64,000 bases of DNA from Octopus vulgaris (Eukaryota), in the NCBI GenBank assembly GCA_951406725.2, contig OX597832.1, forward strand, positions 23,436,001 to 23,500,000, read 5' to 3'. Position 1 is the stretch's first letter. Every line of letters begins with the position of its first letter. The notes beneath the pieces were generated by a model that did not search any database, had not been told where the DNA came from, and was given only the letters and a program-made list of their open reading frames with translations. Shown piece by piece: positions 4,775 to 64,000 of the stretch. The position numbers and the translations under genes were made by a program.

Positions 4775-5540
4775 TTTCTTTTCTACTCAAAGGCACAAAG
4801 CCCAAAATTTGGGTGAGGGGATTAAGTCTGTTAGATTGACCCCAGTATGCAACTGGTACTTAATTTATCGACCCCGAAAGGATGAAAGACAAAGTCGACC
4901 TCGGTCGAATTTGAACTCAGAACGTAAAGGCAGACGAAATACTTATTTCTTTACTACCCACAAGGGGTTAAGCACAGAGGAGACAAACAAGGACAGACAA
5001 ACGGGTTAAGTCGATTATATCGACCCCAGTGCGTAACTGGTACTTAATTTATCGACCCCGAACGGATGAAAGGCAAAGTCGACCTCGGGGAATGTGAACT
5101 CAGAATGTAGCGGCAGAAGAAATACCTATTTCTTTACTACCCACAAGGGGTTAAGCACAGAGGGGACAAACAAGGGCAGACAAAGGGATTAAGTCGATTA
5201 CATCGACCCCAGTGCGTAACTGGTACTTAATTTATCGACCCCGAACGGATGAAAGGCAAAGTCGACCTCGGGGAATGTGAACTCAGAATGTAGCGGCAGA
5301 AGAAATACCTATTTCTTTACTACCCACAAGGGGTTAAGCACAGAGGGGACAAACAAGGGCAGACAAAGGGATTAAGTCGATTACATCGACCCCAGTGCGT
5401 AACTGGTACTTAATTTATCGACCCCGAACGGATGAAAGGCAAAGTCGACCTCGGGGGAATTTGAACTCAGAATGTAGCGGCAGAAGAAATACCGCTAAGC
5501 ATTTCGCCCGGCGTGCTAACGTTTCTGCCAGCTCGCCGCC
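4775..5540 (-). mobile_element. Family C SINE tetramer (unit about 183 bp)
   Basis: One head at 5540 is followed by head-less units with a 183-bp period (cagaatgtagcgg at 5101 and 5284). The last unit ends in the alternative C2 tail. Confidence 0.9.
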
Positions 5541-6641: not shown

Positions 6642-7484
6642 TTAACCCTTTTGATGCCAACCCACCTGCTTAAGACAAAACAGGTTTCTATGATAGAATC
6701 TTCATCATCTTAAGGGATCAAAATTAAAGTTTTTCATCACAGTTTTACGATTTCAGTACTAAACATCAATTTAATAACGACGGTTATTTTAATATATTAA
6801 GACGGCGAGCTGACAAAAACGTTAGCTCGCCGGGCGAAATGCGGTATTTCGTCTGCCGTTACGTTCTGAGTTCAAATTCCGCCGATGTCGACTTTGCCTT
6901 TCATCCTTTCGGGGTCGATAAATTAAGTACCAGTTACGCACTGGGATCGATGTAATTGACTTAATCCGTTTGTCTGTCCTTGTTTGTCCTCTCTGTGTTT
7001 AGCCTCTTGTGGGTAGTAAAGAAATAGGTATTTCGTCTGTCTTTACATACTCAGTTCAAATTCCGCCGAGGTCGACTTTGCCTTCCATCCTTTCGGGGTC
7101 GATAAATTAAGTACCAGTTGCATACTGTGGTTGATCAAAAATGTCGGGCCTTGTGCATAGAGTAGAAAACGTTTTTTTACAATATTCTTCATTATTGAAA
7201 TGCGATTGTTTCAACTGAAATATAGTAGCATATGGATTAATAAAAAGAAAGTAACTTTCCCTAATTTTCCATAATATTCCAAAATTTATTGTAGCCAAGA
7301 CAGTGTATTTCGAGAGTAGAAAATGGCGAATGAGGATAGTTATTGTATTAACTTGTTCATTAATTTTTTTTAATTAATTGAAACCAAATCATTGTATTTC
7401 GACGACAAAATTGTTTTCATAAATTTTCATTACTTTTAACTGAAACGAAGCGTGTGTCAAAAAATGTTGGTAACAAAAGGATTC
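6642..7484. mobile_element. Possible degraded TTAA-type (piggyBac-like) non-autonomous element hosting a SINE dimer
   Basis: ttaacccttttgatgccaac at 6642 and gttggtaacaaaaggatt near 7467-7484 form imperfect terminal inverted repeats. Confidence 0.3.
6800..7170 (+). mobile_element. Family C SINE dimer (C1 unit then C2-tailed unit)
   Basis: Junction aaagaaata|ggtatttcgtctg near 7027. The second unit ends ggccttgtgcatagagtagaaaa. Confidence 0.88.
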
Positions 7485-56998: not shown

Positions 56999-57050
<52 letters not shown>

Positions 57051-57092
57051 CATATGTATGTATGTATGTATTATGTATGTGTATAATGTGTG

Positions 57093-57131
<39 letters not shown>

Positions 57132-57363
57132 CATACGCTTTCATCAACAGATATGTAGATATATATATCTAACTACCAAAGAATTACAAATCTCCCCTTG
57201 AAAAATCTACATGAAACCGAAATATATACGTGTGAATACAATGTACAAATTATATATAGCTATATACACATAATCACAGACATACACACAATTTTATGCA
57301 TAATATATATATAGGTATATATGCATTTGCTGATATATATATATTTATAAACATATGTATATG

Positions 57364-57401
<38 letters not shown>

Positions 57402-57449
57402 AGTGTAAATACATCTATATATAACACGTATATGCGTGTATATATATAT

Positions 57450-57486
<37 letters not shown>

Positions 57487-57525
57487 TCAAATAAAGTATG
57501 TCCTTATTAAACAAAAATTAGTATT

Positions 57526-57589
<64 letters not shown>

Positions 57590-58576
57590 CTTTATAAAAT
57601 AAAATATGTTCTGATAAAACAAAATTTAATATTATTGAACTTATATCAACTTCAATAATGTTTCCTTCTTGCATCTGCTCTCCTTTTTCGTCTTGTTACA
57701 TGCTGCCATTATATAAATATATATACTTTTTGGAATCTGCTTTGATTTTTATATTTGATTAATTTATTTTTTGTTTCTATTTTGCGTTTTCTTTTTCGGG
57801 TTTTTTTTTTCTTTTGGTATTTCCATACATATTCATAGTATGGAGTTCGTATTATTCCCATTTAGAACAACATGGATATTCTTCCCACTTGACTTGACAA
57901 TTATCTCTGCTATGAGAAAAAAAAAAACGCTTTTTTATTGATTATTGTTATTTTATTTCTTTAGTTTCCAAATCATTTCCAAGCGCCGAAGTAGAAGTTT
58001 GACATGCATATCTCGAGGAACGATATTCCTTAAAAGCCGTTGCCGGAAATATATCTTTGTTTTCACTGATTCAAAAATTTTATAAAAAAACACCCTGCAA
58101 CGTTACACCGTACAAATCATATTTTTGCTATATTATTGTTGATTTTACTTTTAGTAGTCTTGCTGTTCCATTTTGCTTTTCTCCGCACAGCGCTTCATTT
58201 GGTATGTTCCATGTGTCTCCTCTCTTAATGTACACTAGAGACACAAACAAAATGCACGCAACCGAATATTTGATAGTAGTTGATGTGTTAACCTCACAAA
58301 TTATTCAGTTTCGTGAGCTCAATTGCACAACCATGTCCGATGGCTTAGATGACTATTCATCCGTCTTGCCTTGGCAATTTTTCATGACTGATAATGAAAC
58401 CGAATACCAACTGATACGGCGGTGGTTAAACAGAATATAGGTGATGGCAATTCTCGAAACGGTGTGATAGACGAATACAACTGAATCATTGTTTAGTGAC
58501 AAAGAAATAATGGTTGTATTCTCTCTGTATAAAACCAGGAATCGTTTACTTTCGGTTGTGTGTTTTTCTCTCTTTT

Positions 58577-59116
58577 TTACAGCTGACATGTCTCTGAAAG
58601 TTTAGTATCGGCATTACTGTTCTGATCTTGGAACTTCGGTGATGCTACAGGACTGGCCAGCATGCCTTGTCGCATTTCCATCATTTCATCTCGGCTCCCT
58701 CTCGGTGAGGAATTGTAGCCCCTATTTATAACATTCAGACGATTTTCGTTATATTCTACGTCATCATCGGTTTTGATATCCATTGTAACGCTTCGAGTTT
58801 GGCTAAAAGCACTCGTACGCGTGTCGAATGAGACCGCACGGTTATATTTATAATGACGGACATATTTGCTGCCTCGTATGCAGGAGCAAATTGCCAGTTT
58901 AAACATTTCCCGGAAGTTTTTCGACATGAACGCATACACAACAGGGTTCACACAACTGTTTAGATACGACATGATGAAAAATGCTTGTCTCATTGGTTTC
59001 AACCAACCAATATGTAAAGAATCGATAACATCAAAGGCTGTCAAAACATTCTGGATCAAAATCGGGCCCCAGCAAATCGCGAACAGAAGTACAACCGTTA
59101 CCAACATTTGAACAAC
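58577..59116 (-). CDS. Terminal coding exon of a class A (rhodopsin-like) neuropeptide GPCR: TM6, ECL3, TM7, helix 8 and C-tail
   Basis: Translation VVQMLVTVVLLFAICWGPIL...MSYLNSCVNPVVYAFMSKNFR contains the CWxP (TM6) and NPxxY (TM7) motifs and helix 8. The acceptor tttctatttgcag precedes 59116 on the minus strand, and the TAA stop is at 58579-58577. The subfamily (QRFP/galanin/kisspeptin-receptor-like) is not resolved. Confidence 0.93.
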   Translation of the reverse strand, partial: VVQMLVTVVLLFAICWGPILIQNVLTAFDVIDSLHIGWLKPMRQAFFIMSYLNSCVNPVVYAFMSKNFREMFKLAICSCIRGSKYVRHYKYNRAVSFDTRTSAFSQTRSVTMDIKTDDDVEYNENRLNVINRGYNSSPRGSRDEMMEMRQGMLASPVASPKFQDQNSNADTKLSETCQL

Positions 59117-59197
59117 CTGCAAATAGAAATGAAATGTAATTAACACAAAATAACTTTAGCACATCTTTCAAATTTCCCTACTTATAAATGTATACCA

Positions 59198-59430
59198 AAG
59201 GTGGCGAGTTGGCAGAACCATTAGCACGCCGGCCGAAATGCGTAGCCGTATTTCGTCTGCCGTTACGTTCTGAGTTCAAATTCCGCCGAGGTCGACTTTG
59301 CCTTTCATCCTTTCGGGGTCGATAAATTAAGTACCAGTTACGCACTGGGGTCGATGTAATCGATTTAATCCGTTTGTTTGTCCTTGTTCATCCCCTCTGT
59401 GTTTAGCCCCTTGTGGGTAGTAAAGAAAAA
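59198..59430 (+). mobile_element. Family C SINE (intronic)
   Basis: Full length with C1 tail. Confidence 0.92.
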
Positions 59431-59445
59431 TATAAATGTATACCA

Positions 59446-59677
59446 ATTTCTTTACTACCCACTAGAGGCTAAACACAGAGGGGACAAACAAGGACAGACA
59501 AACGGATTAAGTCGATTAAGTGGACCCCAGTGCGTAACTGGTACTTATTTAATCGACCCCCGAAAGGATGAAAGGCAAAGTCGACCTTGGCGGAATTTGA
59601 ACTCAGAACGTAGCGGCAGACGAAATACAGCTAAGCATTTCGTTCGGCGTGCTAACGATTCTGCCAGCTCACCGCCT
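59446..59677 (-). mobile_element. Family C SINE (intronic, tail-to-tail with the previous copy)
   Basis: Full-length reverse copy. Confidence 0.92.
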
Positions 59678-59833
59678 TATAAATGTATACCAGCGTTCTA
59701 TATGTTTGTGCTAATCTGGATGTATATCTGGTGAGGTTATGCTTATAAATATAGAACATATATACCATACCATACATGTATAAGAGATTACTGACAGAAG
59801 GTCATAAGTGATGCTGTTATTATTTAATATATT

Positions 59834-60043
59834 AAGACGGTGAGATGACAGAAACGTTAGCACGTCGTGTGAAATGCTTAGCGGTATTTCGCCTGTCTGC
59901 ACGTTCTGGGTTCAAATTCTGCCAAGATCGACTTTTATCTTTTATCATTCCGGGGTCGATAAATTAATTACCAGTGAAATACTGGGGTCGAAGTAATTGA
60001 CAAGTCCCCCTTCCCCCAAATTTCAGGCCTTGTTCTTTTAGTA
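59834..60043 (+). mobile_element. Family C SINE with C2 tail
   Basis: Ends ccccaaatttcaggccttgttcttttagtag. Confidence 0.85.
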
Positions 60044-60103
<60 letters not shown>

Positions 60104-60386
60104 GTGCGTGTGTGAAGCGCTAAAGAAAATTGATGTTTGGACGTCATAGAATAAATCCACGCTAAAAGCTAAAATCATAAAATAACAGTCTTGACGACAT
60201 GAGTAAATAATATTATTAAATTAATTTCACTTAAATAGAGTTCATTTTTATTCTTTATGTATCACTATTAGGTATTTATACACTTCATGATGTATTATTT
60301 TAGTGGAACAGGTATTGAATGCAATTACATTAAGAACCCTCTGTTACATTTATACTTTCCTCTATGTGTGTGTGTGAGAGAGAGAG

Positions 60387-60420
<34 letters not shown>

Positions 60421-60592
60421 TACGCTGATGTCTCATTTCATATCCACTTATAATCAAACAAATGTTACATGACACTGACAGTTTACGCAATACTTTTCGT
60501 ATCGTATTGTTTTAGCATGAATATTACTAATAGTGACTTCGACATTTCGGACAAATTACCTTATATATGTGAGCATTGATATCATCTACTAT

Positions 60593-60824
60593 ACTCTTTA
60601 CTCTTTTACTCTTTTACTTGTTTCAGTCATTTGACTGCGGCCATGCTGGAGCACCGCCTTTAGTCGAGCAACTCGACCCCGGGACTTATTCTTTTTTGTA
60701 AGCCCAGTACTTATTCTATCGGTCTCTTTTGCCGAACCGCTAAGTAACGAGGACATAAACACACCAGCATCGGTTGTCAAGCAATGCTAGGGGGACAAAC
60801 ACAGACATACAAACACACACATAC

Positions 60825-60888
<64 letters not shown>

Positions 60889-61048
60889 GACGGGCTTCTT
60901 TCGGTTTCCCTCTACCAAATCCACTCACAAGGCTTTGGTCGGCCCGAGGCTATAGTAGAAGACGCTTGCCCAAGGTGCCACGCAGTGGGACTGAACCCGG
61001 AACCATGTGGTTGATAAACAAGCTACTTACCACACAGCCACTCCTGCG
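60593..61048 (-). mobile_element. Family D SINE (intronic)
   Basis: Full-length reverse copy with internal (TA)n. Confidence 0.92.
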
Positions 61049-61525
61049 GCTATATCAATTAAAAATTATTGATACCCTTCTTTTGAAACACACTTAAGAT
61101 CTATTTTCACTAGACTTGTTCTATATTTCATACGTCTTTTATATACATTCATAACGAACGCCATCATACCCGTGTGAATAATACCAATTATCACGACAAA
61201 CGAAAGAAGCTTCGGCAGAAGTGAAACTTATAAACTGAAGGTAAAAGCAAAAGCATCCTAATCGAAAAGGGTCAAATAGTTAACTGATTCAACCGCATAT
61301 ACGAAAGTAGAAGAAAATAATGAGCATCCACTGTAGACTGTAAATTTGCCAGTATTTATTTCAATGGAATTATGTCATAGATAAAGTAACGGAGGTGCGA
61401 ATGAATATTTTACTCTTAAAGAACTAAAAGATAAGAGAAAAAACACTATTATCGTTAAACGGGGAAAATGTCTCCTCCACAAATTAATTGCTCCCCTTTC
61501 GACACCTTTATATATAAATAAATAA

Positions 61526-61643
<118 letters not shown>

Positions 61644-61876
61644 CATATACATATATATATATTTACAAACATATGTATATATACATATATATGTACACAT
61701 ATATATACATATCTCATTTTGTCTCATATATGTATATGTGTTTCTACATATATGTACATATATATAAAAAATATATCTAGGGAAATAAATACACAGATAC
61801 ATATGCATATGTACATCCATACACACACACTTAAGTGTGTTTCTATACACGTATACATATATATCATTACACACAT

Positions 61877-61932
<56 letters not shown>

Positions 61933-62228
61933 CGGGATCGGTAGACAGAAGCAAAGAGAGAAAGAGGTGGTGAAGGAAGAATGAAGGTTAAATTAAAAAG
62001 CCTCGATGTCGGTTCTTCAAGCAATTGTTAATGTTTATTACTTAACCAGTTTCATCTATTTCATAACTAAACGTCTATTGTCTGTTAACGTGTGAAAGAT
62101 ATTACCATTACAAGTTCCTTCTATTTTAACGATAACAACCCGTTTATATAGTGATTTACTAATGTACAGATATGTGTGTGTGTATACATATATATATATA
62201 TATATTTCATATATATGTATATATATAT

Positions 62229-62281
<53 letters not shown>

Positions 62282-62839
62282 CAATCTTACTTAGAAATGG
62301 ATGCGTGCGTTCCGTCATATAATAAATTAATAAATAAAACACATGCATATATACATACATATATGTACGTACCTACCTCTACATCTATATATACACGCAT
62401 ATATGGGTACAGGACACCAAAAAACGTCGAACAAAATGAGAAACGAAAACATAAACACAAAACCAAGGAACTGGACATTTTTCTTAAACAACAAAAAAAT
62501 AGAGTACAGGACAAATAACATAAGGAAAATTCCCCTTCTTCAGTCGCCATGGTTTCATCTATTCTACGTTTCGAATGTGAAGGCGATACGCATCTTCGAT
62601 AGAAACTTTCCTTCCCGCGAAAAGCAAATTAAATAAAATTTGAGATCTTTTTGCGGAGGGGTAAAAATGGTAACAAAAACAGGACAGTAACGACAGTACA
62701 AAATATAAACAGTAAAAGACAGGACAAGGAGTATAACAAGACAAGAAGGGCTGCTAAGCCGAACGAGAAAATATTACGAACGCTATTTTTGAGAACGGCG
62801 AAGGAGCAACAGAAATTATATATATATATATATATATAC

Positions 62840-62993
62840 AGGTGTGGCTATGTGATAGGAAGCCTGCTGCCCAACAACATTGTTCCGGGTTCATTCCAAC
62901 TGCGTCGCACCTTGTGAAAGTGTCTTCTACTATAGCTTCGGGGCAACCAAAGCCTTGTTGTGGATTTGGTAGATGGAAACTGGAAGAAGTCCC

Positions 62994-63037
<44 letters not shown>

Positions 63038-63098
63038 CCACACGCGCGCACATACACACAGAGTCAAATGACTGAAATAAATAAAAGAGTAAAAGAGT
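62840..63098 (+). mobile_element. Diverged family D SINE, internally deleted
   Basis: D-like head, (CA)n, then gtcaaatgactgaaa...gtaaaagag. Confidence 0.75.
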
Positions 63099-63342
63099 AC
63101 TTGTACTAAAGTCGTTGACGTAAATATACTCTGAACGTTATCTTACTGTGAGTGCTGACCTCGAGCGGTGCGATTACCGTTGGCGCTGCAGGCAACCGAA
63201 TGAATCACCGCCGTAAACTGGTTAAAGCGGTTGACGTAAACATACGTCGAACCGTTGTCTTGCGCTAATTGCTGATTTCAGCCGAGATGATAACCGTCAA
63301 TGTAGCTTGTCGTCAAGGGGTTAAATCCTTGAAATTCCTCGT

Positions 63343-63675
63343 ATCGGTATGTTTTGCCGAAGCGCTAAGTTACCGGGACGTAAACACACCAACGCCGGTT
63401 GTCAGGCAGTGGTGTGGTTCGAACAAGCGCACACGCACATGAACACACACATACACACACACTCGAGCGCGTGCACACACATACATACTTATATATTTAG
63501 GATCAATATGTGTGTTTGTATTCGACAGACTTCTTTCAGTTTCCGTCAACCAAATCCATTTGCAAAGGTTTTGTCCTGTCCGAGCCTATAGTAGAAGACT
63601 CCTGCCCAATGTGCCACGCAATGGGACTGAACCCGGCACCATGTGGGTGTGAAGCAAATAGTTACACCTATGCCT
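63343..63675 (-). mobile_element. Diverged family D SINE
   Basis: cgctaagttac..ggacgtaaacacacc and cttctttcagtttccgtc..gtgccacgcaatgggactgaaccc. Confidence 0.75.
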
Positions 63676-63850
63676 ATATGGGTATGTTTGTGTATGTATA
63701 CGTATATATTCGTACAGAGGTGTTCCCCTTTCATATCTAGGGCCAACAAAGCTTATGACACCAAGGTCGGATCTCTTATCTCTTATAAAAATAGAACCAC
63801 ATATGATTTAAGAAGGTGACCTCAGGTATATTTGCATATTTTGTTTTTAC

Positions 63851-63974
63851 CTGTTTAGTTGTGTTGTCGTCTTCTGCTGTTGTCTTCTTCTGTTCTTTGT
63901 ACATTGTATTCGGCTTTCGAACAATGGGAGCGACACTTCTCTGCGATGATACTTCTGTTAATTGTTGATTCTCA
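63851..63974 (-). CDS. Preceding coding exon of the same GPCR (end of intracellular loop 3)
   Basis: Minus strand: polypyrimidine acceptor tttctcttttccattttcttttag, then an open 124-nt exon (t + ENQQLTEVSSQRSVAPIVRKPNTMYKEQKKTTAEDDNTTKQ), then donor cag|gtaaaa. It ends in phase 0 and joins in frame to give EDDNTTKQ|VVQML, a typical ICL3-TM6 junction. It is absent from the ORF track. Confidence 0.85.
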
Positions 63975-64000
63975 CTAAAAGAAAATGGAAAAGAGAAATT

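Follow-up and report, generated by a model that had tools for sequence, protein, structure and literature searches.

The window, i.e. the whole 64-kb stretch of octopus DNA analysed here, includes the last coding exon of a QRFP-receptor-like rhodopsin GPCR gene, read from the reverse strand. The last intron of this gene, 4.7 kb long with its donor GT at 63850, contains a pair of inverted SINEs close to the splice acceptor. The receptor is 98% identical to the 'pyroglutamylated RF-amide peptide receptor' of O. bimaculoides, in which the orthologous gene, Ocbimv22038375, is located on scaffold KQ416738 near 166,930, and the product of its last coding exon is identical, over that exon, to named records from O. 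vulgaris and O. sinensis. The genome also contains at least three paralogous QRFP-receptor-like genes (G000:C19, 22.47-22.59 Mb and 23.34-23.40 Mb; C8, 107.46-107.58 Mb), two of them near this gene, and all have Leu at the position that corresponds to Ile348 of the present receptor. The features of the locus, with positions counted within the window, are the following:

58577..59116, - strand: last coding exon of the receptor gene (TM6, TM7, C-tail and stop codon)
58975, - strand: candidate A-to-I recoding site, ATC>GTC (Ile348Val, TM7), at a distance of 208 nt from where the predicted hairpin has its base
59117..59180, - strand: acceptor AG (59118-59117), pyrimidine tract and likely branch-point region, outside the SINE stem
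59183..59197, + strand: first copy of the target site, TATAAATGTATACCA, flanked by unique intron DNA on one side and by the head of S1 on the other
59198..59428, + strand: full-length SINE copy S1, antisense to the gene, with 4.8% divergence from the family consensus
59431..59445, + strand: second copy of the target site, between both tails; it forms the predicted hairpin loop, with 18 nt between the arms
about 59447..59678, - strand: full-length SINE copy S2, in sense orientation relative to the gene, with 6.1% divergence from the consensus
59678..59692, + strand: third copy of the target site, its first T common to the head of S2
59833..60001, + strand: a relative of the same SINE that is older and more diverged, with about 79% identity to S1 and S2, and inverted to S2 at a distance of 153 nt

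Exact matching confirmed what the sequence-only reading had noticed, namely that a 15-mer stands before, between and after two full SINEs arranged tail to tail. The three copies of TATAAATGTATACCA, all on the + strand, are the only exact matches in the window; with up to two mismatches allowed, 6 matches are found there, against a mean of 1.32 in shuffled sequence. The ends of the duplications can be placed to within 1-2 nt: 16 nt are common to copies 1 and 2, and 17 nt to copies 1 and 3. The tail of S2 continues into TGGTAT, similar to the family tail TAGGTAT, and the ATACC within the middle 15-mer also matches the family's own tail. ARAGORN and Rfam returned no tRNA match for the SINE. Box-like motifs are visible in its sequence: in S1, what we take from the Pol III consensus to be an A-box-like motif lies at about 59210-59222 and a B-box-like one (GAGTTCAAATTCC) at 59272-59284.

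S1 and S2 show 90.5% identity when aligned, and as facing arms they are 90-91% complementary and 18 nt apart. For the pre-mRNA, a single long hairpin is predicted, with -426.7 kcal/mol over 681 nt and a z of -45.9, and a comparable fold would be predicted for every inverted pair of this kind. The length of about 230 bp put forward earlier agrees with this prediction, and the loop, then given as 15 nt, becomes 18 nt between the arms. The pair had also been placed about 80 nt from the acceptor, which holds for the S1 arm, the first 15-mer lying about 65 nt from the AG. In the predicted fold, the acceptor region is left outside the stem. A miRNA precursor was considered and dropped, as the Rfam matches are all below gathering scores and reflect the hairpin shape only. 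The relative at 59833-60001 is an alternative pairing partner for S2. The same intron further contains inverted repeat pairs of other families (window 60599-63656), with 60892-61046 facing 62839-62992 at 83% and 62865-63010 facing 63509-63656 at 74%.

The SINE is a short element of 231 nt, interspersed, present in high copy number and without coding capacity, and its core may be of the Deu/Nin type. Its exact head motif occurs 55,099 times and its exact tail motif 160,258 times in the genome. Target-primed reverse transcription is the established mechanism by which such elements insert. In a family set of 126 full-length copies, assembled from the window and from fetched loci and enriched for pair loci, the bases that follow AAAGAAA are T in 114 copies, A in 120, G in 76, G in 83, T in 106, A in 113 and T in 96, which gives TAGGTAT as the majority tail and target consensus. 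A duplication could be scored in 47 of these 126 copies, with a length of 8-23 nt (median 15), and in 13 of the 31 copies from loci found by a single-motif search. The duplications of the family begin at GGTAT, GTAT or TAT-like words, and the median divergence of the sampled copies from the consensus is 6.1%. The simplest reading is that the tail of the SINE RNA pairs with the nicked target, so that sites resembling the tail would be favoured. At the present locus, the target reads TATAAAT from the left on the + strand and TGGTATA from the right on the - strand. It offers in this way two favoured starts that face each other, about one duplication length apart.

Many members of the family form tandem units of about 184 nt, in which the tail continues into the SINE's own sequence (14 of 31 full-length copies at loci L081-L140). 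Re-entry is at about position 51 (GGTATTTCG) or about position 17, where the tail matches an internal site. Within the window, such units lie at 4819-5540 (- strand) and 6799-7135 (+ strand). A Helitron- or HINE-like element, considered for a GTCY-like tract and for these tandem units, was dropped because the duplications are long and variable.

Close pairs of the SINE were counted genome-wide and compared with uniform placement. Head-to-tail pairs number 535 against about 49 expected, head-to-head pairs 41 against about 8, and tail-to-tail pairs, with a strict pattern, 34 against about 53; these expectations are rough, since they ignore tails inside tandem units and since the three patterns are not equally strict. 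A looser tail-to-tail pattern gave 119 matches, versus 62 for its reversed control. That the arrangement is special, as the sequence-only reading implied, is not borne out by these numbers, the close tail-to-tail pairs not being enriched over chance, and for the same reason a dedicated mechanism making such pairs was rejected. Moreover, 9 of the 33 other tail-to-tail loci repeat a non-microsatellite word of 7-12 nt in all three places, and 4 more have a TA run of 10-12 nt there. The present pair carries the only perfect non-microsatellite triplication (15 nt) among the 34 loci. The number of exact coincidences expected among the 34 pairs is 1.0, a rough value (P(lengths within 1 nt) = 0.23) that assumes two duplications in every pair and a flat distribution of spacers; it is probably too high. 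Among the first 30 of the 535 head-to-tail loci, 8 of which could not be scored, 12 of the 22 scorable rows (10 distinct loci) have 8-17 nt common to the three places. The arrangement is thus the cleanest example of an ordinary double insertion, at the short-spacer end of a tail-to-tail continuum. A literature search for two SINEs in opposite orientations that have their target duplication in triplicate found no such description.

Other arrangements of the same SINE were encountered in this survey. Head-to-head pairs exceed the chance expectation by a factor of about 4-5, and a central palindrome, such as TAATATTA, lies in many of their spacers (L066-L080, 15 of the 41 loci; 2965-2993 in the window), as if both copies had used one palindromic nick region in opposite directions. 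At another locus (L060:1027-1767, reverse strand), three copies in the same orientation follow each other in a row with four copies of the target ATTATATGACCCCTTT, as in a repeatedly used landing site. Finally, one SINE tandem with identical flanks is found in three places (L039, L040 and L041; G000:C1, 21.1-22.3 Mb), which points to segmental duplication.

The history of the pair can be approached from its two copies. S1 carries 11 changes from the consensus and S2 carries 14, and not one non-consensus change is common to both; they are therefore independent insertions. Their identity ranks 48th of 125 among the family copies, for which the median is 90.0%. With the three target copies, these data support the earlier suggestion that two SINEs would have inserted one after the other, independently and in opposite orientations, at a single target. 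We consider it probable that the locus reflects an ordinary double insertion guided by matching between tail and target, with the hairpin as a passenger. The first SINE, more likely S2, would have been primed at GGTAT on one strand and would have duplicated the 15-mer. The second, S1, would then have used TATA for priming, on the opposite strand and in the target copy adjacent to the first tail, and would have duplicated the 15-mer again. The ends of the duplications would coincide because both are about 15 nt long and because the starting motifs face each other about 15 nt apart. That S2 came first is modestly favoured, since its head has 3 nt in common with the original left flank, a neighbour that it would have only in that order, and since S2 is slightly more diverged.

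In all four DNA-type runs, which bear three organism labels, one unbranched contig leads from the exon through copy 1 to 28-29 nt into S1, and in one of them (X9) another contig covers 18 nt of S2 and continues into the right flank; both overlaps are shorter than the 31-letter bridging standard, and X2 is possibly the source of the present DNA. The pair predates the split of these close relatives. Neither an empty nor a single-SINE allele was seen in the four runs among the joints listed (15 of 366), a search for which it matters that contigs lose rare variants. As neither allele was seen, it is by inference that the two-step history and its order are proposed.

Alternatively, both staggered nicks may have primed two SINE RNAs at once, a loop-retaining repair then keeping both, or alleles with opposite insertions may have recombined at the 15-mer. 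Both cut positions agree between the two duplications to within 1-2 nt, and the loads of rarer changes in S1 and S2 are similar (9 each), as if both copies were equally old. Nevertheless, the lack of enrichment of tail-to-tail pairs, the offset and overlapping duplications that other loci display, as successive events predict, and the roughly one exact case expected by chance make such a one-step or recombinational origin quite unlikely. A fold-back duplication of a single SINE, or an assembly artefact merging two haplotypes, would agree with the fact that no contig crosses the central junction among those listed. Another tail-to-tail pair (L023:519-727) does look like a fold-back, both of its arms being cut at family position 136 between mirrored flanks. 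Unlike that pair, however, the present one has arms with no common non-consensus change, and the DNA-type contigs enter S1 in four of four runs and leave S2 in X9, albeit over fewer than 31 letters, so that an origin of this kind is hardly credible.

What the hairpin does in the transcript can be considered from RNA-type runs of four studies (X6, X14, X18 and X19), presumed to be RNA, with contigs that are spliced. The longest contigs in all four runs are spliced at this acceptor, and splicing there looks normal in the four studies; the interval 59120-59166 lies outside these contigs and has no weight either way. The stem base is about 65 nt from the AG, and a hairpin beside the acceptor could in principle slow or alter the removal of the last intron. 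The effect on splicing suggested by the sequence-only reading has no support in these data, given the normal use of the acceptor in the four studies and the position of the branch-point and pyrimidine region outside the stem. Contigs cannot show rates or minor forms, but with spliced contigs in four of four runs, we regard a role of the hairpin in modulating splicing as very unlikely.

A-to-G changes in RNA had been anticipated over this region. One sense-strand A>G change was found, at 58975 (T>C on the + strand), in the contigs of X14, X18 and X19 and not of X6, i.e. in three of four RNA-type runs against none of four DNA-type runs. A second difference, C>A at 58835, is synonymous and is an allele, since it is seen in DNA. 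Protein records tied to genome contigs, from O. bimaculoides, O. vulgaris and O. sinensis, have Ile at position 348. QHX41561.1, with no contig on record, has Val and is likely derived from a transcript. Ile348Val is much likelier to be recoding than polymorphism, the RNA and DNA individuals being unmatched. Moreover, the available part of Table S5-1 of PMC9989829 lists for the O. bimaculoides receptor gene model an ATC>GTC, I>V site in 4 samples, at level 0.78. Position 94 of that table would map to Ile348 if the O. bimaculoides model starts at Met255, which is the only Met in the receptor gene for which residue +93 gives an ATC Ile inside 7tm_1; the three paralogues have Leu there. With this mapping, the editing is apparently shared with O. 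bimaculoides, where the site would be 78% edited.

Could the hairpin drive this editing? It has to be considered that the SINE hairpin of about 230 bp, once created by the two insertions, was co-opted, recruiting ADAR and raising the editing of Ile348Val. Besides the distribution of the A>G change between RNA-type and DNA-type runs and the Ile and Val of the protein records, the distance argues for this possibility: the hairpin lies upstream in the intron, 208 nt from the site, and the Alus of NEIL1 lie 221 nt upstream (PMC4053975, in its available text). The close inverted pair is also retained under all three organism labels, although pairs of this kind show no enrichment. In addition, no firm local stem was found for the edited site: around 58975, the search for a strong stem gave z -1.0, with pairing partners that differ between folds, and within 57000-64000 the best duplex of a complement to the site (-25.7 kcal/mol) is no better than those of 15 shuffled queries (-25.1 to -32.8).

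Against the hairpin stands first the abundance of recoding in octopus, common enough to need no such structure. According to the part of the PMC8382921 supplement available (ST2-3), O. vulgaris ORFs contain 117,411 A>G sites in 16.9 Mb. Because this amounts to one per 144 nt, several sites are expected in the exon anyway, about 3.7 for its length without any hairpin. The age of the SINEs also bears on the question. With a rate of 0.0036/My (PMC13282606, as far as its available text goes), the changes from the consensus date S1 and S2 to about 14 and 17 My, and the rarer changes only (9 of 231 in each) to about 11 My, roughly 5-21. The same source puts the split from O. bimaculoides at 13.3-33.5 Mya. 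O. bimaculoides may therefore lack the pair and yet edit strongly, if the site listed there at 0.78 is indeed Ile348. Since recoding is common in octopus and the SINEs may postdate the species split, it is unlikely that Ile348Val depends on the hairpin. It is just as doubtful that the double insertion built an ADAR recruitment element that tunes this site, as a cephalopod counterpart of the Alu editing inducers.

With the hairpin as a passenger of an ordinary double insertion, the intron would be spliced normally, and the hairpin, likely hyper-edited as other repeats in octopus are, would afterwards be lost together with the intron. Editing within the predicted arms is plausible, as it would be expected from the general hyper-editing of octopus repeats described in the available text of PMC5625713. 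The recoding of Ile348Val would likely rest on a local structure of its own, and this recoding is likely older than the SINE pair.

The insertion pattern is thereby a tidy example of a known behaviour and shows tail-target matching steering an octopus SINE family. The locus also has value as a test case: it is datable, and the distance between its nearly perfect predicted hairpin and a strong recoding site, in a helix of the receptor, is that of an inducer. A literature search for a link between young SINE hairpins and cephalopod recoding levels found none. Should the inducer reading be true, the locus would allow one to test directly whether recoding levels in octopus were shaped by its burst of SINEs.

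Several known systems can be compared with this locus. In octopus, SINEs of the tRNA-Core and tRNA-Deu types and a SINE expansion at JC 0.065, about 18 My ago, are described in the accessible parts of PMC8967140 and PMC13282606. The present family resembles these SINEs in its very high copy number, and the median divergence of its sampled copies fits the expansion. The available text on NEIL1 K242R (Daniel et al. 2014, PMC4053975) describes inverted Alus that are needed for the editing. The predicted geometry of the octopus locus matches that of such Alu editing inducers: inverted SINEs form a long hairpin in the intron, and a recoding site follows in the exon downstream, at a distance of about 200 nt. 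For NEIL1, dependence was shown by deletion and by the absence of the Alus from rodents, whereas the octopus likeness is one of geometry; moreover, the octopus site appears to undergo strong editing in a species from which the pair may be absent.

The closest parallels concern the insertions themselves. Alu pairs, as reported in the available text of a 2011 study (PMC3215922), include direct pairs with the second copy in the target-site duplication, a ratio of inverted to direct pairs of 0.076 at spacers of 24 bp or less, and head-to-head pairs in excess of tail-to-tail ones. Likewise, in the octopus family a second copy lands in the duplication of the first, direct pairs far outnumber inverted ones at short spacers (roughly 75 inverted to 535 direct), and head-to-head pairs are raised over tail-to-tail pairs. 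The two differ in that the octopus SINE would prime through its GGTAT/TAT tail, whereas Alu does so through poly(A) and the L1 site, and in that the present locus belongs to the rare tail-to-tail class, with fully coincident duplications. In Drosophila, transposable elements undergo double insertion through site preference, also in inverted orientation (McGurk and Barbash 2018, PMC5932611). The cases in the available text of that paper are LTR, non-LTR and DNA elements; the inverted ones receive no detailed analysis there, and none of the pairs in that text consists of SINEs. There, as in octopus, site preference gives dimers parted by the target duplication, and the palindromic ATATAT junction of an inverted Rover pair has its likeness in the octopus target, the core of which is nearly palindromic (10 of 12 nt).
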